DNA of 53,619 nucleotides, counting the filler, from Catajapyx aquilonaris (Eukaryota): the NCBI GenBank assembly GCA_000934665.2. It is 2 parts of 2 records of this genome, joined end to end, with 100 filler letters (N's around TTAATTAATTAA, not from the genome) between each part and the next. Parts side by side here need not be neighbours in the genome. Positions count along the whole stretch, not along the records: positions 26,879 to 53,619 come from KZ539297.1; 1 more part is not named here. One strand, 5' to 3'. Position 1 is the first letter of the stretch. Each line of letters starts with the position of its first letter. Under the pieces are notes generated by a model, which saw only the letters and a list, made by a program, of their open reading frames with translations, did no database searches and was not told the origin of the DNA. The translations under genes were made by a program, and so were the position numbers. Shown here piece by piece: positions 9,040 to 52,075 of this stretch.

Positions 9040-9253
9040 TAGCCATGGCATGTGGTCCTGTATTGGGTGCCTGTTACGGATGGAAAAGAGAGTAAGGAGA
9101 AAACCCCTTTTTTCCTGAAAGTGAAAATGTAGGAAATGCATTTGCTCAAGTTCTAAATTATAGTGGGGTGTACTTTAATTTGTGTACTTTAATTTGCTAG
9201 ACTAGCTGGCATTAAGAGTTGTTCTTTTCTTCCTTGTAGGTCAGAAATTTCCC

Positions 9254-10195
9254 ATGGCTGTCGGTCTCAGCTTGGAAGAGGCAAAATGTGCCTTCACTGA
9301 TTTAATCAACAACATTGAACCAACAGCCAGCAACAAATTTGCAACATGGCTTAAGAAAGAGTGGAACTCAGGCAAAGTAAGGAAAGAAGGTTTGCCAGAG
9401 TCTGATGCTAACAGTCATGCAGAGGAAACATTAGAGGAGATCCGCACTGACATTCGCATGTTGCTTCCCCCAAATGCAGAGTTCCCATCAGAGAAAATAA
9501 TATTTCCTCAGGTCGGTCACAACAGTGATTGTGACCCAAAGCATACTATTAACGTTGATGCTTTTCTATATGATGATGATATGGTGGACCATCTTTGCAG
9601 TGAGGGAAAGTTGGCTCGTAGTTATTGCAGGGATTGCAACTCACATAATACAGTACCAATTAACTACATATCCCACTCCATGTCCCAGGAACGATTAAAG
9701 TTCATTTTCACAAACCTACTTCCGAATTTGGAAGGTCTTACAGTTTTAGATGTAGGATCAAGGCTTGGCTCAGTCTTGTATGGTGCATATGTGTATTCGA
9801 CTGCCTCCAAAATAGTTGGTGTGGAGATGAATGAAGACTTCTGCCACCTCCAGGAAAAGATAGTGAAGAAATACAACATGGATGATAGAATTGAGATTGT
9901 TCATGAAAGTATCTTCAATTCACAAAGAAAGTTGTGTGAAGCCAATGTTGTTGTGATGAACAATGTCTTTGATTTTTTTATGAAAGATGATGACAAGAGT
10001 GGAGCATGGTTGTTCATGAAGGACACCATTGTCAGTGGCACACTGCTAGTTACTGTACCTCCTCTTTCTTTGTCACTGGAAGATTGTGGAGTGCAACTGG
10101 ATGGCTGGGTGAATGAGTTAGAACCACTGGGTCAGCCAGAGGGAGATGTGGATGAGGAGGAAGTGTGTGACATCCAACTCTACATGATCATTTAG
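9254..10195 (+). CDS. Uncharacterised class I SAM-dependent methyltransferase (313 aa), CDS in a single exon
   Basis: Long clean ORF. Motif I VLDVGSRLG, acidic beta2 IVGVEMN, VVVMNNVF motif-IV-like segment, N-terminal YCRDC. Strong acceptor TTCTTTTCTTCCTTGTAG| at 9239, just upstream of the ATG. Confidence 0.9.
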   Translation: MAVGLSLEEAKCAFTDLINNIEPTASNKFATWLKKEWNSGKVRKEGLPESDANSHAEETLEEIRTDIRMLLPPNAEFPSEKIIFPQVGHNSDCDPKHTINVDAFLYDDDMVDHLCSEGKLARSYCRDCNSHNTVPINYISHSMSQERLKFIFTNLLPNLEGLTVLDVGSRLGSVLYGAYVYSTASKIVGVEMNEDFCHLQEKIVKKYNMDDRIEIVHESIFNSQRKLCEANVVVMNNVFDFFMKDDDKSGAWLFMKDTIVSGTLLVTVPPLSLSLEDCGVQLDGWVNELEPLGQPEGDVDEEEVCDIQLYMII

Positions 10196-23362: not shown

Positions 23363-23867
23363 ATAAGATCATATAGTGTCCAGGCTTGATCCTGAGGCCA
23401 TCTATGTGACCCTCCTCTCATGCATACGCAGTGGAAACTCTCAAATGCAAAACGAGTTGGTTAATGAATAGCTTAAGAAAAGTTAATGTGTTACATACAC
23501 CACACTGCTCCTTTTACTCCATAAAAGAGGTTGGGTGAGTTACATGGAATTCTCCAAATTGTTTGTCGTACATAAAGAACCAGTATCATGCTTTTCAAAA
23601 TGTTCATTTCAATTTTGTTAATAACCACAGTCATGGGTTTTTCAAGTAACACATATTATGCTGTTATTCTATTCTTTCACTTTAGGTAGAGCACCTAACT
23701 CAGTGGCTTAAAAAATCCAAGGGTTTCTCATTGTTACTAATTGTAGCTAACTTAACTGACAATTAACAACAAGGGAAAACCCATGTGTTTTATATACTGA
23801 TCAGTGATGTCAGTGCTCCTTTTCTTATTACTGCATGTAGATGTTATGTTGTTTTTGTTTCTTGCAG

Positions 23868-24036
23868 ACTGTTGTTAAACCTCAAGTGAAAGAAGTGTGT
23901 TGTCCAGGCTATGAAGTGAGTAATGATGCGAAGCACTGTGTAGCAGTATGTACACAGCCTTGCTTACATGGCACATGTGTGGGCCCTGATGAGTGCAGGT
24001 GTGAGAGTCGATATGGAGGTCCCAGCTGTAATCTTT
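23868..24036 (+). CDS. drpr: draper/MEGF10-like, coding exon 3 (CCPGY motif plus NIM/EGF repeat)
   Basis: TVVKPQVKEVCCPGYEVSNDAKHCVAVCTQPCLHGTCVGPDECRCESRYGGPSCNL; TTGCAG| and |GTAAGT; phases 0 and 1. Confidence 0.95.
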
Positions 24037-24099
24037 GTAAGTGTATATGTGCATATTTTTTTCTTGGTGTGTTTAGTGACATCTGACATTTTCCTTCAG

Positions 24100-24346
24100 C
24101 TTGTCCTACTGGCAAATGGGGTTCTAATTGTGAGCACAATTGTCAGTGCATAAATAATGCCACATGTGATCCGTTCAATGGTGACTGCACTTGCACCCGT
24201 GGTTGGCAAGGAACACATTGCAATATTGAATGCCCGTCAGGACGCTATGGCCAGCACTGCAAGGAGATCTGCAGGTGTCGCAATGGTGGTTCATGCGACC
24301 ATATTTCAGGAGCGTGTCACTGTGCTTCTGGATGGATAGGACCTTT
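24100..24346 (+). CDS. drpr: draper/MEGF10-like, coding exon 4 (EGF-like repeats)
   Basis: CPTGKWGSNCEHNCQCINNATCDPFNGDCTCTRGWQGTHCNIECPSGRYGQHCKEICRCRNGGSCDHISGACHCASGWIGP after a 63-nt intron; donor |GTAAGT. Confidence 0.95.
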
Positions 24347-24909
24347 GTAAGTGCAAGCTTATTCTAAAAAGAATTATTATGACCAAACTGGAGTAGAATG
24401 GTTCCTTATGTGTCATTTGCATGCATGTGTATGAACATAGCTCTACCTGTGCTGTGAAACTGGATAACACTGAAATTCATGTTGTTTGCATGCTCCAGGT
24501 ACAAAATGGGGTGACCCATCTAGGACCACAAAAGGACCCGAGGCCCTTAATATGAGCTTGGGAGAATTAGGAACTCTTCTTGTTTCTGTATGATCATTTA
24601 CATGCTAATTCATTTATTGTCCTGTGCAAACATTGTTGTGTTGCTGTACTGGATTAAGAACGGTCATGATGGTGTTGGGAAGCCTCATGATGGTGTTGGG
24701 AAGCCGGAGAAGGGGCTAGGAGGGGGCAACCTTGAGCCAGTATGTGTTTGGAAGGGAGGTGAAAGGGAACCTAATTCAACAGCAGCTGAAAGGAAACTGA
24801 TTCAAAGCAGTCAAAAGGCAAATGCATTGAGTAACATTGTCAGGATTACGAGGGAAGGGGGAGCTAACCAATGTACTCATACCATTCTTGGTTCTCTTTT
24901 TATGAATAT

Positions 24910-26778: not shown

Positions 26779-26878
26779 NNNNNNNNNNNNNNNNNNNNNN
26801 NNNNNNNNNNNNNNNNNNNNNNTTAATTAATTAANNNNNNNNNNNNNNNNNNNNNNNNNNNNNNNNNNNNNNNNNNNN

Positions 26879-31584: not shown

Positions 31585-34270
31585 CGTCATTCAAGGTTGG
31601 AGAGATAGGACAGTCAAATGGAGCTAGTACTGTCACACTCTCAATCTTCGGATAGGATTTTAGTGTTCTCGTATTCTTTATTAATTTCCAAAACTGGGCA
31701 GGCTCACTGGTGGAGAGCAATTGATCCCTAAGTGTGAACGAATAATACCTTTTTTTCTTCGCGGCAATGAGATTCCTATACATTCTTTTATGGCCATAAA
31801 AGACTAATTTATCTTCCGCACTATACGAGGAAGTCCATGCCTTCAGTGCAGCAGCCATGGTATTTTTTGCTATCTGAATGTCTGCATCAAACCATGGTGC
31901 TCGCTTGTTCCTACAGTGGCTGGGGTTCCTAGCAGTTCCCACAAACAACAGGCCATACTCTTTGAGAATGTCCTGGACTGCAGAACAAAATTTTGTGATA
32001 CAGCAATGGAGTTCACTGGACCAATCCTGCCGTGCAAGGACCTCATCTAATGCATCTTCCAAAAAACCGAAACCTCCGTCTGGTTTGATTAGCTTCATTT
32101 TGGTAGTATGCTCCGGTGCAGTTGGTAAGGCTAATTGTATGTCTAATTTCCCGGTAAGGCAGAAGTGGTCAGAATTAGTACGTGGCGTCACGTTGAAGTC
32201 CATACAGGAAGGAGTCAGTCAGATTTTGAGAAGTGATAATATAATCGATCGTGCTCTGCCCTCTAGGGCTCACGAACGTAAATGCGCCCGGAATATCAGA
32301 CGGAAGTGAACCATTTAATATGTTGTATAACGAATGAGTATCTATCAATTCCAGCAACTCCCTGCCTCTCGTATTTGTTTGTGTATCACGAGAAATACGG
32401 GTACAGAAAAAAGAAGACAACGCATCATTCTGAACAAATCCTTGATTTGAGGCTACTCTGGCATTAAAGTCTCCTAAGAGGATAATAGGTGTACCAATTT
32501 CATTACAGTTTCTCAAGGGTCCCACCCAAGCTTGAGAGGCTCCCTCAATGTTAGGCTCGGTGGGATATATACAAAAAAGAGGGCGCACTTTGAACCCCTA
32601 AAGTCATTGAATTCCAAGGCTGTATGTGCAGGGCTGGAGCTAATTAACTTGGGGCACGTGGATCGATTAATCAACAATAACAAACCTCCTGCCGCACGGC
32701 CGAATCTCGATGACCGAACAGCACCACATTGAAATACACTATACCATTCTAGGCTAGAAAATCCTTGAGTGTCATGTTCTAACCAGGTTTCAGAAAAACA
32801 AGTACCGGTAATATGGGGGGCAGGGGTAGTTTCCAAGCAAAGGTTCCAAGCCTCACGGGGGTTCATGCCCGCAATGTTCCAGCTGCTAATAACGAAGGCT
32901 TGTGAGCTGCGACCCACACTGAGTGGAGGGGGGGTGAAGGTGGGTGGGGCTCACTATTTGGGTAGTGCTTCTTTTTTTTTTGCCAATGAAGCGGGATGCA
33001 CTACAGAAACACTAGGAACACTATTTACAAACGCGGGAACATATTGCCGCACTGTCATGGGTTGTGACCCGGCGCATCCTCATTCCGAATGGCTATCTCC
33101 GTCTTGGTCCTGTAGAGATGGTATCACCGAAGCGGAGTTTTTGAAAAAGCTGGCTGAATCAATACGATGCACGCGGCCTTGACCACTGCTGGATGGCACA
33201 TCTGGCAGGCCGGCAGGTGTCGTCTGCTCCACTATTGAGGAAAGCGCAGGAGTAGCTAATGGGGGATTTTTAGAGGTGCGGGGGAGTTTCGGTGGGTATG
33301 CATTCGAGGGGGGGGGGGAGCACTTTCACTTGATTCACTCCTAGAGTGCTGCCCATCTTCTGCAATGCTCACCACCACTGCTGCATAGCTACCCGACATT
33401 GCTTTCTGGATCTTCTTCGGCACTTCCGGCGAGACAGAAATGTTCCTCTTCCCTCCTCCTTCGCGTTGAGAATTGGCAGCCGGGCCATCGGGCACATCAT
33501 GATGAATCGGCGCCTGACGACCATTCACCAGTTTACCCCCCTCCATCCAATGGGGCACATTATCGATCAGCAGGGTTTCCATTCTAAGGACGGCCTTCTT
33601 GTTCATCTTCTTGGCCTCGATCAAGTGGGGCATCAGAGCTTTCTTATGTCTCGTGTCTCCTGTGCAAAGTCCTCACTGATTGACAGGCTCGATCTCTTTA
33701 ATTGCCGTGCGTTGCTCTGCACTAGACTTTTTGTCTTTGAACTTGAGAAACATCATTATTATCGGACGTTTCCCCGGTCGTTTCCCCAGCCTGTGGACCC
33801 TCTGGAACTCCACGTTGTTGGGGTCTGGATGGAGTCGGAAATCTGCTAGCACCTTCCTCACCCTTTTCTCCGATTCCTCCCAGGATTCCAGCTGATGGTC
33901 CAGCACCCCGAACAGGATCAGGTTAGACCTTCTTGATTGGTTTTCCAGGGACGTGACCTTCTGCTGTAAGTAATCCAGGTCACTTCGAAGTAAGCGGTTC
34001 TCGTTCTCCAGGAACGAAGTGCGTTGCAGGTTCGTAACCAGGTCCCCACGAAGATCTGCAAAACTGGCGGCGACCTTCTCCTCCAGCTTGTTAACACAGT
34101 CTTGGGTATCCTTTAGGAGCAGCATCCTTAGGTCGGTCTTCAATGTCTCCAACGCAGCTGATAGGTCCCGGGCAGTAATAGCTGCCATGGTGCCAGTGCT
34201 ACACTCCGCGGCGCACCGGAAAATGTGGGCGTCAAATGCAGAGTAGGGAACAGGGAGCGAGCCAAGAGAA
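31585..34270 (-). mobile_element. LINE 5' half: L1-like ORF1 and APE endonuclease of ORF2, frameshifted and cut before the RT domain by the LTR
   Basis: ORF1: coiled coil, LENQSRRSNLILFGV, RVHRLG, RPIIMMF (33256-34188). ORF2: SWNIAG, SETWL, GRAAGG, VYIPP, LGDFNA, STIDY, SDH, APWFD (31585-32917). Confidence 0.92.
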
Positions 34271-35332: not shown

Positions 35333-36820
35333 CTACTGGAAACGACTGTTAATTATGGATTGCCTGACCAGTTCTCCCCTCCTCCGCATCGAGTCCCTTT
35401 CCCGGTCGCTCGGAGCAAAGATGGTGCAGGTTGGTTCGGGATGCTCTGGAGGCACTGGATCTTCACCATCAAGTTGTGGGTCTGGAAGCCCATGCTCTAT
35501 GCGCAAATTGTGTAACACTGCACAAGCATTGGCGACCAAACCCACCTTGTTGGGGTGAAGATGCAGGGTGCGATGGCGGAGAAGGCAGCGAAACCTCGAC
35601 TTGAGTACGCCAAAGCACTTCTCCACCAACCCACGCACCTTGCATAGTGCTTTGTTGTACTGGCCCTCCGGGGTCTCAGGTTCCGGATGATTGCTGATGG
35701 GCACCATCAGCCACGGCTCCAAGGGAAAGCCACTGTCCCCTATGTCAAATATGAAGTGGTTAGCACTCTTTGCAGCACATAAGGAAATAGTCACAGGCAA
35801 GATAAAAATATCCTGGATTATGGCATTTTCAGTTGCAGATATATTGCTTTCCAACTTTTACCGCAAACCTTGCAATAAAGCGACACAAGAAAGGTACAGA
35901 AGTCCAAGTGACAAATTTCATTGCTGGTTGAAAGTATTTACTTACCCAGCAACCAACCTTCACCTCCAAGGCCACCCTGCTGAAAGTGTTGCCGCAGGGA
36001 ACAGAAGCGCCAAATGAATGCATCGTGTACTGACCCCGGGTACCTCGCCGAGAACCACAAAATTTTGTACTTTACATCACACACCTGCAGAAATTTGCCA
36101 CTGTTAGCACTCTCTCCACTTCATTGACAGGAATCTATTGACTAACTTACTGCCAGGGCGTTTACAGAGTGATACCCCTTTCGGTTGACGAACATGTGTT
36201 CTGGGGATCGTCCAATCTGAGCAAGGTGACTCCTATCAATCAGCCCGACCACACCAGGGAACCCTTGCTTCAAATTCCTGACTTCCTGTGGGGTGCGGGG
36301 GTATCTTATCCACTGCGGGGCTAGGTGATGGTCAATGGCTGTGGTGACTGAGGTTACCACGTTGCTCACTGTTGACTGTGAAACCCCATGGTACAGGTTG
36401 GCCGCAATCTCTTCTTGATAGGACCCTGCGGCATAAAACCGCAGGGCAATCAGCATCTGCAAAATAGTGGATGCAGCACATGCTTTAATTTCAATTTTCA
36501 TACACTTCTTGATCATACACTACCGTACTACCAACCTTTGCCTCGACACTGAGTGCAATGCGGCATACCCTTTTGGCTTCTAGTGTAGGCCGGAGCTGCT
36601 CGCACAACCAGAGCACCAGCTCCTTGGACAGCCGGTATCTCCTCCGGAACTGGATGTCGGTCGGTACCTGGAAGGCGTCCGGCCTGTCGTGAAAGAGCCT
36701 GACCGGCCGTTCTGGGCGTTTGCTGGCGATGTCCGCGAGGCGGAGGAGGAGAAGATCATCGTCATCGTCGTCGTCGTCCCGTAGACGCCGCTTCATGGCC
36801 CGATTGACGTTGACCGCCAT
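35333..36820 (-). CDS. PIF/Harbinger (HARBI1-like) DDE transposase, 4 exons: 36820-36536, 36456-36151, 36084-35946, 35739-35333; 378 aa
   Basis: FRRRYRLSK, ALRFYAAGSYQ, GVSQSTVS, FPGVVGLID, NRKGYHSVN, YPGSVHDA, LLGDSGFP, VEKCFGVLKSRFRCL, CAVLHN. All introns are GT-AG with consistent phases and no stops. Confidence 0.93.
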
Positions 36821-45154: not shown

Positions 45155-46883
45155 CTTGCACTGTTAACAGTGTTAACTTACTGTGGGTGTTGTTGGGGGT
45201 CGTCAGATGTCTCCCCTCATCAAACAGTTCCGTCAGTGTCCAGACTATGTCACACCAGCATTCCCGACACATTTTCCATGTACAGATTTGTTTTGCAGGC
45301 AAGAAAAGCCAGGTGTCCTGGGACTTTTCGCCCACCCAGTATTTCCCTCTTGGTTATCTAGTGCAATGGCAATTCTGCCAAGAGGTGCCACAATTTCTAC
45401 CATGAGCTCGCCTTGCTGAACTTGAGTTTGTGTGACTGTTTCTAATAATGTGATGAGGCTAGTTTGTTGTATCATGACCTGGTGAACTGTGTCTTGACGC
45501 CTTCTGTCATTGGGTTTGGGAAATATTTATCGCAAGTGGATTTTTTCAGAAATTGATACACTTGGCTGTACCACATTTAACGGTGTTATTTATTAATAAA
45601 TTAAAATGTGATAGTATTGTTTATCTAGAACTCAGTCCAATGTGCTATGATAAAAAAATTTCATAGCAATTAAAGTAAAATGGCTTTAAATATTCCTTAA
45701 TTCAAAAATGCGCAGAAAATGGCATATCTGCAAGCCATGATAAATATTTTTTAATTTTGTGCTAGATTTTTTGTAATTAATGTCATAACTGTTTTTGGGT
45801 TTGTGCGGCCCCTCAGGTTCATTATCAACATTTACATCCCGCTAAGTAAGAAATTAACATAGTGGCAGCAATTTTTACCAGACCCCACAGAAATTCACTG
45901 TCCAAGGTATAATCGTATTTATTTCAGTTGTTAACTGTCAAATGAACTTCAAATTTGGTATCCTCCTAGCTCAATTGTTACTATTCATAATTATCCATTC
46001 TAAAGTCCAGATAATCTTAATGGAAACTTTTTATCACATCCTGTGTATAACCCCACCACTCCATTTTTTGGGGGTGTCCCAATATTTTCAGATCAGGGCA
46101 AGTATTTGGCACCTGGGTCAAACATCGCACTTTCTTAACATGCAATACTGTGCTACCATGTCACGAGGTGTTTGGAAGTCTTGAAGGACCCGGTCTGGAG
46201 TCCCAATGGCATGTATTTTGGGCAAGGCTGTTTTACTACGAATGCAAGGTGGCTAAAAATAAGCTTTTTTGTTTGTTTGTTTGAGTAGGAAGAAGCCAAA
46301 ACAATAAGTTCAATTGGGTTAGAAGATACAAAGGTGGGACAGGAAGCGAAGAGCTGAGCTGAAATAATTCCACAATTGCTGACTATTTTGGTACATAATG
46401 TCATACATCCGCAATTTTACATGCATTTCTGATATATGAACACGAATTCAGTTGTGTCGAGTTGAAAATGTCTTCTATGTGGAATCAGAATTTTCTTACA
46501 TTTATTATCCTGTATAAATAATACCCTCACTCATAATTAATGCATGCCCAAGCTGTATGAACAATGTCAAGTGGAATTGGTGACGGGCTGAGAAAAGAAC
46601 GGCGGATGTATTGTTGAGCATGTATTGTTGAACTGTTGTTGAATGTCTCGTTCTGATTGTTCTTTGCAGTACGTTGAGAAGTATCAATTGTATGTCTTTG
46701 TAGGTGGTGAGTAGAACACATTAACCCTGTAATGCCGCGATGTTGCCTGGAGTAATTTCAGCTTCAGTAAGAAAGTGACAGCGTGTTATACATATTCCTC
46801 GATTCACTCCCTCCTGTATGATATAAAAATATTGCCTGGATAATAATGACAATATCTAGTCCCCTATAAAAACTTGTCGCTAG

Positions 46884-47298
46884 TTATTCCTTAGCGATTA
46901 ATTCTTGAAAGCCACAAACATCGACGTTCTGATGATAATGCCCAACAAGCATCCTCCACTTCCTGAAGGCCTCGACAAGGCTCTCCCAGTCGTTGGATTG
47001 GATCCAGGCAGGCGGTTCTGATGCTGGAAGAGGAAGCGGATGTAGAGGCTGGCCAGCCTGAGGATCTCCACCCTGCCCAGCTAAGGGTCGGAATTGTCTT
47101 CCGTAGCCTGTCGAAGGCGATGTTCATGCTCTGTCGCTCGCAGGCGTTGGCCCTCTCCCTCCTCATCTTCCAGTGCACGGACTTGGCGGGCGATATACAG
47201 TCATTGGTGTCTCCTCCGCTGCTGGTGCTCTCCAATGCGAGTCCAGAAATGGGTACCATGGGATGGTGGGAGTTGTTGATGACAGTTGGGCGCACCAA
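46884..47298 (-). pseudogene. Intronless, frameshifted Twist-like bHLH gene copy with WR motif
   Basis: RRERANACERQ---SMNIAFDRLRKTIPTL / LGRVEILRLASLYIRFLFQHQ / DWESLVEAFRKWRM across two frameshifts. Confidence 0.75.
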
Positions 47299-47444
47299 AT
47301 TGTCGACAGAAGCTGGAGTGTCCTATGCGTCGCATATGATTTTTCGGGTATGCCGGACACAATTGCTTCCTCCCATACCTTGGTCGTTTGCTGCACTACA
47401 AATCCATCTTGTTCATTGCTTTCTTCGTAGTATTTCTTGGCCTA

Positions 47445-47800
47445 TGGTTTTTGGGATACCGGGTCTATTGGTAATGTTTCCAGGGATAAAGTACGTACTA
47501 GTATCATCACGATCCTTGATTCTAAAATTTGCATCAGTTCGTAATGATTTTCCTATTTCGGAGAAGCACATCCTCCCATTTTTGTAAATGCCTTTCGTAA
47601 TGCCACATGCATGGTACCCTGAAGGTGTTGATGTAGTTCTTGCATGCCATAGTAATTCATTGGTTAATGTAGAAAAATTTCTGCGCACATGCAGTCGCAC
47701 CCACACACCATTGCACACACCCAGATATACGCATACGCACACTCGTGTATGCGTTCGTTCCTATTTACATAATTCACTCAACATGACGATGAAACATTTC
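47445..47800 (-). pseudogene. CACTA/EnSpm-type transposase fragment
   Basis: GYHACGITKGIYKNGRMCFSEIGKSLRTDANFR...LETLPIDPV pattern. Confidence 0.65.
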
Positions 47801-47959
47801 ATGGTTCCGAGCATGGTGTGGGGGATGATCACTAACATTCACATTTAATATTTCACATCGAGGAAAGTACAATTCACGTTGAAAAGCATTGATGATTATA
47901 TTCCTTCTTCTTGACCATAATCATCACTCTCCCCCCTCCTCATCTGTTTCGACTCCGAA

Positions 47960-48723
47960 AGAAAGGAGACTTGGGACATTTTCTCCAATGGTCTTTTGGA
48001 AACACCTCTCAGTGCGGTAATGACCGGATCTGAATTCAGCGACAGATGATGCAGGAGGTTGCTGTCTGTTCTAGAGCGCTTTCGCGAATGATTCTAAAGC
48101 TTCCCCTGATAGTTAACCTGAAATATTTCATTATCATGTTATCAAAGTCAGTGTTAGAAACCTATTGCTTGTGTTTAAAGTAGGCCTAAACTTACCGATA
48201 GGAAGCATGGCTCCTTTGATCACAGTTGGACCATGAATAAGTATCTTGTGTACCGTAGGTGGCATATAGTACCATCGGTAAAGTTTTATGTAGAGCTCTG
48301 TTGTTGTTGAACAGTATTGTTCGAAAAAAAATCGATCTTGATTTCCCGCTCACTTGACAGAACGGATGTTATGCAGGCAGTTCTTCGTTAACTCCTCAAA
48401 TTCAGGGTAACATTCAGTTGAAAATATCTGCGAATATTAAGGAACTCTTTACCAGTATTTCGACTGAAACAGACTGATTCTCACAGAACTGTCTAGTGGT
48501 GTTTCCGTCATTTGACGTTCCAACACTTTTTCTTCCCCTTTCAATGTCCGATGGGTCGTCGTCTTCGGGACTCAAACGCCTGGCCGTAATCAGAAACTGG
48601 TCCGACGTTTTTGGTTTTTGGAAGCACCCTCGAAGTTAAGTCGGCATTTCCGGGCCCGGTGTAAGTTTGGACCTGGAACTTTTTCGTATGGAAACCTGAG
48701 ATTCCAGAGAAACAAGATGACAT
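47960..48723 (-). pseudogene. Transib (RAG1-related) transposase remnant retaining small introns
   Basis: GTSNDGNTTRQF; LYRWYYMPPTVHKILIHGPTVIKGAMLPIG then GTAAGT..TTTCAG; LSGEALE; SDPVITALR. Confidence 0.85.
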
Positions 48724-49139
48724 TTTCTAAAGCCCTCTTATCGAATAATAATTATGTCTACCAGTGTTCTCGCCATCCTGCATGTGTTTGTGCACATTCC
48801 TCTGGAAGTCTCCTGACGTGTTCAGCGAAAGAACAGCGGAGGCACATTGAAGGATGTACCCCCAGTGAACAGCGAAATTGAACCTCTTTCCGCCCAGAAA
48901 TTTCGCCGTAACTGGCCATTTTCAGCTGGACAGGCTTATTTATAGCAAATGCAACATGCAGCTACAGGCTACAGATATACCCTCTCAATTTCATTCACAA
49001 TGTGGCCGGCAGATCGGGCACGTGTGGTGTCGTGGCATATCCCACTCGTCCACCATGTTAAGCAAGGTCTCACACATGCATGCACGGCATATACATAAAC
49101 ATTCTTGTTACCACCATGCAGAAGACGCAGGCTAGAATC

Positions 49140-49400
49140 CCGTGGCCTCCCACGGCGCATTCCGCCGTCTTCATCCATGTCCTTGGCGTTTGCGTCGGGC
49201 TCGATGGCGGTGTATGGAGTGACATAATTATGCGGTTTTAGCAAGGAACTGCTGAATTGTGTACTCATTGGTCGCCAGCTTATTTCAGCAACTACAATAT
49301 GTCTGTCTTGAAGAACATATTTGTGTTTCTTAGGCCGTGCAATTGGAAGCTCTCGGTGAGAGCGTCTTAGGTCTTGAATGGCTGCCAACTCAGTCACTCA
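49140..49400 (-). pseudogene. Probable MULE transposase C-terminal remnant
   Basis: PIARPKKHKYVLQDRHI...MRRGRPR. Confidence 0.4.
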
Positions 49401-50454
49401 GAGTTTCTCTGAAATATATTGAAAGCGCCATATAAAGTGTTGAGTGCAAAATTATAGCTCGGAAATAACAATACGGTCTTTTCAGGGTGCCACTTCTGAG
49501 CTGTTCATGTCTCTTACGCTTAGATAAGCACTTCGAACAACTTTTTCTCTGGGTACTAAATGCAGTCCTGGATGCTGCTTTGCCAGTGGGAGTGTAATGA
49601 CAACCTCACCTTTCGTGTGACCACTATTGTGTCTTCTGGTTTGATCGCAGCAATGCTTTCCAAAGGTACGAGTGAAGATATTTCCTTTCATGGTGTAAGC
49701 GCATGTCTGTCACATCATATCTTACCACACGTAATTTAAGGATTTCTTGTTCAGCCTCAGGATAGCTGTCCAATTTTTTCTTAGAGCATATATTTTGGTG
49801 ACTCCTTACGTAATCTGTCTTGAGGCATATGGAGATGAGGCCATTTCAGAGATTCGTAGCATTTACCCGACTTCCGGAATTTCAATTGCATTATTCTAAC
49901 GGTAGTGACTCGACTACTGGCCGATTCTAGAATTGGCCACAGCTGACTCGAGGTGCTTTTTCCAGAGAAGAATACATATTAATCACGACCTCTACCTTGT
50001 CCAGTGCAGAAACTACCTGACAACTGCCATCTGTTAAGGTGTTAACAATAATTTCATTGTGTAAGCCAAAGTGTTTGTAATATCCTGGGTTAATTGCTCA
50101 AATAATTGGCAATGATTTGGCGTATTATAAATGTTAATATCCATACCTTGTAAGAGGAAAGGCCCATCGCCCTAAATGGTCTTCTTGCACACTCAATCAA
50201 GGTTGAGCTAGGAGAGCGAAGAAACTCTTCCCTGAAAATCAATCAGTCGTTGAATAGTGCACTTGTGTCTCACACAGGTTTGTTTGCTACACTCCAGTGA
50301 AGTGCATCAGTGGATGGGAGAGTGTATGGAGGTAGATTACCACCTGTAATGATGTTTGTACAGAGTTACGTAGAAAGGTGCATATTGCTGTTACCCTCCT
50401 TGTTGCTGGCAACACAATTGGACATTCCAGTACAGGCTTCAGATTCAATAGGCT

Positions 50455-51399: not shown

Positions 51400-51830
51400 T
51401 GTCGTATCCTCTGATTATAATGGACTCGAACCAGATGAAAATGGTGGCATAAGGGGGTTGTGGTGTGACGATCATGTTGTTACGCCCCAGAAACTCGCGC
51501 GTTTTGAAAGCAGTGTGCGCGGGAGCATTGTGATGGAGAATCCAATTCCCCTCACGCTAATGTCCTCCCTTAGATGCCTCAGAACGTTGCAGTAGATCTC
51601 GTCGTCGACAGTCAGACCCTGAGGCACGAATTCACGGTGCACAACACCACGAACGTCGAAGAAAACGACGATCATGGTCTTCGTCGCACTCCTGACCTTC
51701 CTTGCCTTCTTCGGTCTTGGAGAGTTAAGGCTCTTCCACTGCGAAGACTGTTGTTTGTTAGTCTCAGGATCATAACCATACACCCAACTCTCATCGCCAC
51801 TGATGACCCTTGATGAAGCCACACTGACAT
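51400..51830 (-). pseudogene. mariner (DD34D-type) transposase remnant
   Basis: ISGDESWVYGYDPET, SSQWK, PRPKK, TMIVVFFDVRGVVHREFVPQGLTV; HHNAPAH-like segment in a shifted frame. Confidence 0.92.
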
Positions 51831-51889
51831 CTCGGTCATTGTTGTAGTCATCATCATTGTTGTGGTTGTTGTAATCATTGACAGCCTGC

Positions 51890-52075
51890 AACATGGGCTT
51901 AATCCGGTTAAGAAATCCAGAATCTGTTGTAACATAAGAGTCATTGCTTCGACCACCGTATTCCTAGGACATAGATGATATGATGCCATCTGACGTAGTG
52001 GCAATCAAATCCTTTACGGTAAAGATGCCTTTATAGCGGGATAAAAGGTTATGCTGCTCCACTTAGAGGCTTTTC
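51890..52075 (-). pseudogene. ISL2EU/HARBI1-like (DDE_Tnp_4) transposase remnant
   Basis: SRYKGIFTVKDLIATTSDGIISSMS*EYGGRSNDSYVTTDSGFLNRIKP. Confidence 0.7.

Follow-up and report, generated by a model that had tools for sequence, protein, structure and literature searches.

A single decayed twist-like gene copy in Catajapyx aquilonaris that probably evolved as a coding gene before its loss

The window studied here, a stretch of 53,619 nt of Catajapyx aquilonaris DNA in which two contigs, C2978 and C2979, are joined end to end, carries on its minus strand the broken remains of a twist-like gene that is probably a lineage-specific, fast-evolving twist duplicate, judged from its sequence to have had a long functional phase before it became a pseudogene. 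We infer that it originated from the twist of this lineage, that it passed through a functional phase and that the damage came last.

Six-frame translation placed intronless Twist-like pieces in three frames of the minus strand at about 46,884-47,322, matching Twist in the basic region, both helices and the WR motif, as had been noted in a first-pass annotation of this DNA. That annotation extended the feature from 46,884 to 47,800; its lower part does hold the Twist-like pieces, while the coding signal ends at about 47,340 in a sliding GC3 profile, which switches frames where the Twist-like pieces do and weakens above that position. The parts of the copy are the following.

47,170-47,322, minus strand: N-terminal part in the same frame as the basic region, with an in-frame ATG at 47,259 and a GC3 of 0.65
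47,083-47,169, minus strand: basic region and helix 1, from the codon alignment to host twist (locus L021) and a Pfam HLH match (E 0.0022)
47,081-47,082, minus strand: first frameshift, a net 10-nt deletion with the loop removed, from DNA alignment to host twist
47,024-47,080, minus strand: helix 2, with 11 of 19 residues identical to host twist
47,022-47,023, minus strand: second frameshift, a net 22-nt deletion after helix 2, from alignment to host twist
46,950-47,021, minus strand: linker and WR motif, with Pro-Pro-Ala at the host-twist spacing and the WR motif at 46,950-46,985
46,884-46,949, minus strand: C-terminal tail and stop of the WR frame (stop codon at 46,884-46,886)

The Pfam HLH match to the basic region and helix 1 is weak (18.2 bits at E 0.0022, for a cut-off of 20.7), and in this part host twist has 9 nt that the copy lacks, an in-frame deletion at the junction of 47,134 and 47,133. 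The N-terminal region is largely unalignable to host twist; a short Ser/Thr/Gly patch in it resembles the host protein, and a 28-nt patch aligns with a score reached by 2 of 300 codon shuffles. The WR motif, scored with a matrix built from 26 diverse twists from which host twist was left out, reached 20.6 bits; host twist itself scores 25.4, and the runner-up among 222,604 real six-frame positions has 2.1. None of 3,201,300 shuffled positions attained 20.6 bits, and the WR match reported at first pass is thus genuine. Its spacing from the bHLH is that of host twist once the 22-nt deletion is allowed for. With deletions of 9, 10 and 22 nt and two frameshifts, both of which are present in read contigs of the source sample, the copy has no intact reading frame with a complete basic-HLH domain. 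Since the frame that opens at the ATG at 47,259 today spans 122 residues, with a damaged basic region and helix 1 and no helix 2, the current copy is predicted to encode no working, dimerising HLH.

DNA and protein searches with the copy recovered only the copy itself, which is therefore single; the several copies with shared flanks or termini that had been envisaged reduce to one, with no fitting terminus downstream. Read depth was flat over 46,405-47,853 and close to that of the flanks (three runs, one sample), and an identical 2,161-nt read contig covers both the copy and the tail of the neighbouring Transib-type transposase described below, so that their junction is real. A search with the 3′ flank returned, among the 40 of 345 candidates that were scored, only a high-copy repeat at the far end of the flank. 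Just downstream of this flank, 45,600-46,240 is a very high-copy repeat with a summed contig depth in the tens of thousands. The sequencing runs listed as carrying the sequence included none of RNA. In run X5, which comes from another study and is of unrecorded kind, an identical 306-nt contig covers 46,295-46,600 and no part of the gene; it ends beside an A-rich tract, spans a minus-strand AATAAA at 46,506 and is no evidence on expression. The A-rich tract itself, near 46,263-46,285, lies 600 bp from the copy and is not tied to it.

An HLH family search of the genome gave 56 matches, all of which were examined, and these include one intact twist (contig C1335 of G000, locus L021). The coding region of this host twist is itself intronless. 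Host twist and the copy are on separate contigs and form no tandem pair; over the stretch that runs from the basic region through the WR motif the two are collinear, apart from the three deletions. Among 72 aligned codons, 37 encode residues identical to host twist and none is a stop; the DNA divergence is about 35%, and the differences by codon position number 26, 23 and 27. The 9-nt loss is bracketed by two 5-nt repeats of the host sequence, a hint that slippage or end joining may have caused it. The best host match is twist in both DNA score and protein identity: in the bHLH part it scored 83 among the 56 host bHLH loci, with the next at 68, and 27 of 48 bHLH residues are identical, compared with 25 of 48 for atonal. 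No intact source paralogue was present among the 56 bHLH matches; the HLH family search and a search with host twist both missed the copy itself, so other broken copies could escape them. DNA alignment revealed no similarity between the 3′ flanks of the copy and of host twist.

A Thr in helix 1, where twists have Ile, is common to the copy and host twist and absent from all 263 homologues compared, and the Pro-Pro-Ala to WR spacing of the two is likewise found in none of the 263. The Thr is one site only, and the homologues (120 plus 143 new) are, where named, mostly from vertebrates and lophotrochozoans, with no close relative of this organism among them. At three positions the copy holds the family-consensus residue and host twist has changed, indicating that the copy split off before these changes. 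None of the 263 proteins shares more than five of the 35 residues that are the copy's own. Further searches likewise found no living orthologue of the copy: its first frame returned nothing at E 0.1 among 58 protein candidates, 60 longer candidates gave nothing at E 10 in a database also devoid of close relatives of host twist, and when 1.84 billion representatives were searched with a profile, ordinary twists made up nearly all of the best 150 of 10,078 hits, none of which has the copy's own residues. An atlas search gave only generic HLH leads below 0.9, and a search of viral contigs, sensitive to close relatives only, gave no confirmed match to the copy's first piece or to host twist.

Two trees of the bHLH alone, one of 49 rows and one of the 29 rows that remained once 14 twists and 6 host rows (long-branch, duplicate or partial) had been dropped, left the copy in an open fork that lies outside Twist+Hand, a group supported at 90/87 and 84/86 in the two trees; the rows nearest to the copy were twists. 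AU tests rejected neither the all-twist grouping (p 0.15), nor the host-twist grouping (p 0.19), nor a PTF placement (p 0.38).

The copy probably evolved as coding sequence before it decayed, as had been supposed from its divergence. Compared with host twist, dN is 0.39 and dS 0.90; the ratio of 0.43 would by itself be compatible with a neutral pseudogene derived from a conserved parent. The GC3 of the copy is 62 of 72 (0.86), with 34 and 32 of 72 for GC1 and GC2 and a GC3 of 55 of 72 in host twist, and its flanks have 36-42% GC. This GC3 lies within the range of host bHLH genes (0.46-0.86, 21 rows) and above that of Transib ORFs (0.38-0.49). In neutral simulations starting from host codons, a GC3 of 62 was reached in 0 of 5,000 runs at every setting, and even with an all-GC ancestor neutral decay could account for no more than about 0.2 substitutions per site (P 0.34 at that level and 0.04 at 0.3), against a replacement divergence of 0.39. 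Furthermore, 14 of the 19 changes in 46 bHLH columns led to residues that also occur among 20 other host bHLH rows (31-33% under neutrality), and 10 of the 19 to residues found in at least two other host rows (about 16% under neutrality). These departures from neutrality have P values of at most 0.0008 in a test that presupposes a twist ancestor and a simple mutation model, and two of the 19 are host-branch changes. Thirty of 45 invariant Twist columns are kept and 15 changed, compared with about 19 kept in simulations, a test inflated by a distance that was fitted on all sites, with host-branch changes among them. The absence of stops (P 0.05-0.18) and the mean BLOSUM score of the changes (P 0.11-0.32) were not significant. 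Because of the GC3 and the 14 changes to residues of other bHLH families, we read in the copy a long, selected coding phase followed by a shorter decay phase. The five changes unseen in other families are candidate post-mortem damage.

On this reading, the host's intronless twist would have been duplicated in this lineage, and the duplicate would long have remained protein-coding, with selection relaxed but still acting: the WR motif and the core of the HLH would have been retained, and surface residues specific to Twist would have given way to those of other group A bHLH families. From what is known of bHLH proteins, the live gene would most likely have been a dimerising regulator of the E-box type whose preference for partners or targets had changed. 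It would then have died and acquired three short deletions, two of them frameshifts, and a few damaging substitutions. The upstream Transib tail and the other transposon scraps would, most simply, be independent insertions, one of which may, speculatively, have cut off the gene's 5′ control region. The genome also holds, on contig C651 of G000, two tandem MyoR-like, fast-evolving bHLH genes (L039 and L041) that lie 3 kb apart and have branch lengths of 2.1 and 4.8 and GC3 values of 0.84 and 0.82; this pair sets a precedent, within the genome, for bHLH duplicates that diverge.

The transposase fragment next to the copy, first described as CACTA-like, turned out to be of the Transib/RAG1 type. 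It matches residues 367-414 of the chain in PDB 6PQN, which we take to be the Helicoverpa zea Transib transposase, at E 7.7e-12, and intact Transib-type ORFs of the genome map to 47,965-48,545; these matches rule out a CACTA identity. Weak 3′ similarity to a relative (score 72, against 50 for the best of 30 shuffles) continues down to about 47,640, and Transib-derived sequence lies about 300 bp from the copy on the same strand. The tail is broken by frameshifts, and of the transposase the C-terminal part alone survives. The other features of the window to which we refer are listed here.

47,640-48,545, minus strand: broken 3′ part of a Transib-type transposase (about 47,900-48,545) with an apparent 3′ untranslated region; no terminal repeat found
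48,539-48,912, minus strand: repeat-family fragment (L071-L074, 75-77% identical), whose longer copies have a YqaJ ORF and which replaces the Transib 5′ part
49,195-49,908, minus strand: two further repeat fragments (49,195-49,493 and 49,496-49,908) with no library match and blank in Pfam
32,178-32,597, minus strand: LINE endonuclease fragment
35,336-35,857, minus strand: Harbinger-type DDE fragment
51,475-51,963, minus strand: mariner fragment
26,779-26,878, no strand: artificial, non-genomic spacer of 100 nt (N's with a six-frame stop linker) between C2978 and C2979

The fragment at 49,195-49,493 is presumably a Mutator-like tail, and we take that at 49,496-49,908 to be possibly a CACTA/Mirage/Chapaev-like piece, for which an atlas search returned nothing. 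All five C2979 transposon fragments with a tool-supported strand, namely, the LINE, Harbinger-type and mariner fragments together with the Transib and YqaJ-family pieces, are on the minus strand as the copy is, a number too small for significance alone. Three more fragments on this contig, judged by eye, are also on the minus strand. No host gene was recognised on C2979, whose recognised content consists of transposon remains only; the contig may represent a piRNA-cluster-like locus of the uni-strand kind, or else an intron belonging to a gene on the plus strand.

Transib matches in the genome number 36, of which 25 were obtained as loci. Neither the 24 other Transib loci, with flanks of up to 1.5 kb, nor three longer ones showed a bHLH or WR signal, and the 11 loci examined for the upstream repeats likewise had none. 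With the terminus consensus taken from the accessible part of PMC1131882, no fitting RSS-like Transib terminus was found in 45,900-47,900; decay could have erased such an end. A 5-bp target duplication was not found either. An RSS-like end near a related Transib (L064) turned out to be that of a distinct short repeat family (L064:4059-4390) of about 330 bp, with at least 15 copies of 77-81% identity, that is probably a non-autonomous Transib. Long open Transib-type frames of 730 and 600 residues occur at two other loci (L098 on contig C3133 and L105 on C2893, both of G000), which are possibly young or intact Transib elements.

The location of the copy inside a probable draper intron, also part of the first-pass annotation, is an artefact of the contig join. 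The draper-like exons of the window (23,841-24,347) are on C2978 and the copy is on C2979 (window 26,879-53,619), on the other side of the artificial spacer. Moreover, the draper-like gene is split over two contigs and goes on in C1898 (L128, L129), whose first exon continues the last draper-like exon of the window and is followed by more EGF exons, a transmembrane segment and an NPxY motif. C2979 itself showed no EGF-type exon, and nothing suggests that this contig falls within the unassembled gap between C2978 and C1898. Elsewhere in the window, an open frame of 329 residues at 9,206-10,192 (plus strand) has weak methyltransferase-family matches, all below curated cut-offs.

A different history, raised at first pass, would have the copy arrive as cargo of a virus or mobile element: twist would have been captured long ago by a Transib or some other element and carried as a selected accessory gene, and one copy would then have been trapped and decayed at this site, a graveyard of transposons with a strand bias. 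This is consistent with the position of the copy on the Transib strand, about 300 bp away across a junction confirmed by reads, with the lack of an intact source paralogue among the 56 bHLH matches, with a contig of transposon remains on which all five supported fragments share the copy's strand, and with the frameshifts that break the Transib tail and the copy alike. However, we consider it unlikely and found no support for it as first stated, given that the copy is single, that no bHLH accompanies the 24 other Transib loci, the three longer loci or the 11 upstream-repeat loci, that no Transib-type terminus lies downstream, and that a GC3 of 0.86 follows the codon style of host bHLH genes and not that of Transib ORFs (0.38-0.49). 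Viral contigs, as far as close relatives are concerned, gave no match, and the 263 proteins hold none with more than five of the copy's own residues. Slightly less likely still is a more specific version in which twist, captured by a virus of this lineage or by a mobile element (a Transib or a nested composite), would have served under selection as a rewired bHLH+WR accessory factor, one copy of which was trapped with other mobile DNA in a strand-biased piRNA-cluster-like locus; if the in-frame deletion in the basic region predates its death, such a factor may have acted as an inhibitor unable to bind DNA.

A retrocopy or segmental copy that was dead on arrival and decayed neutrally, the selection signal being a model artefact, appears rather improbable. 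A single copy nearly collinear with host twist had been named at the outset as the mark of a simple processed pseudogene, and the copy is indeed single and collinear with the host coding region; the even spread of differences over codon positions, the dN/dS of 0.43 and the non-significant stop and BLOSUM tests are also in keeping with neutral decay. What argues against it is the DNA divergence of about 35%, together with a GC3 above the parent's in spite of AT-richer flanks (36-42% GC), the 14 of 19 changes toward residues of other bHLH families, and a 3′ flank that bears no similarity to that of host twist. The most doubtful of these histories would have the copy descend from an older WR-bearing bHLH lineage sister to Twist, or from a chimaera in which a Twist tail was joined to a non-Twist bHLH; the residues it has in common with other families would then be ancestral and not convergent. 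Many copy residues do match atonal, PTF and ASC types, and the bHLH-only trees put the copy outside Twist+Hand (90/87, 84/86), but AU tests reject neither the all-twist nor the host-twist grouping (p 0.15 and 0.19), the Thr in common with host twist is part of the bHLH, the bHLH DNA taken alone matches host twist best, and no such family appears in the best 150 of 10,078 profile hits.

If the copy is, as seems probable, a lineage-specific duplicate that was later lost, it would be a rare second twist where twist is usually single, one that drifted toward other bHLH families before its loss. It would then record which Twist residues are free to change while the WR motif is held, and, should relatives keep a live orthologue, point to an undescribed developmental regulator. 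Were the cargo history true, a developmental master regulator would have been maintained by a selfish element; the accessible open-access literature yielded no example of a transposon-borne twist or bHLH.

Among known systems, twist is single in 12 of the 13 insects tabulated in the accessible part of PMC5126786, with an exception in the ant Harpegnathos, where a tandem, weakly supported second twist is reported (PMC3527142, in part). This ant case is the only captured or duplicated twist found in the accessible literature. PaTwi2 of Harpegnathos saltator resembles the copy in being a second, more divergent twist in an arthropod. The ant gene, however, comes with a protein accession and shares a contig with PaTwi1 at a distance of about 21 kb, whereas the copy is broken and does not share its contig with host twist. 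The neighbouring fragment resembles Transib transposons, as far as the accessible text of PMC1131882 describes them, in its matches to the 6PQN chain and to the genome's Transib-type ORFs, whereas here the C-terminal part alone is present, with no terminal repeat, 5-bp target duplication or sign of the copy within element ends. Gene capture by Pack-MULE, Helitron and CACTA elements (accessible text of PMC3597677 and PMC6431247) is similar in that a host gene fragment lies beside a same-strand DNA transposon remnant, but the copy lacks multiple copies, shared termini and a target duplication. In word searches, the accessible text of PMC3597677 has no mention of twist or bHLH, and that of PMC6431247 none of Transib or transcription factor. 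The accessible text of PMC5299467 calls the WR motif a characteristic feature of twist, and according to that of PMC3507644 residues of the basic region and the loop are important for DNA binding by TWIST1. The copy differs from Twist itself (host twist; human TWIST1 bHLH, PDB 8OSB) in its three deletions, two frameshifts, changes at 15 of 45 otherwise invariant Twist positions and lack of an intact HLH, and shares with it the intronless, collinear basic-HLH-linker-WR layout, with the WR motif still present.
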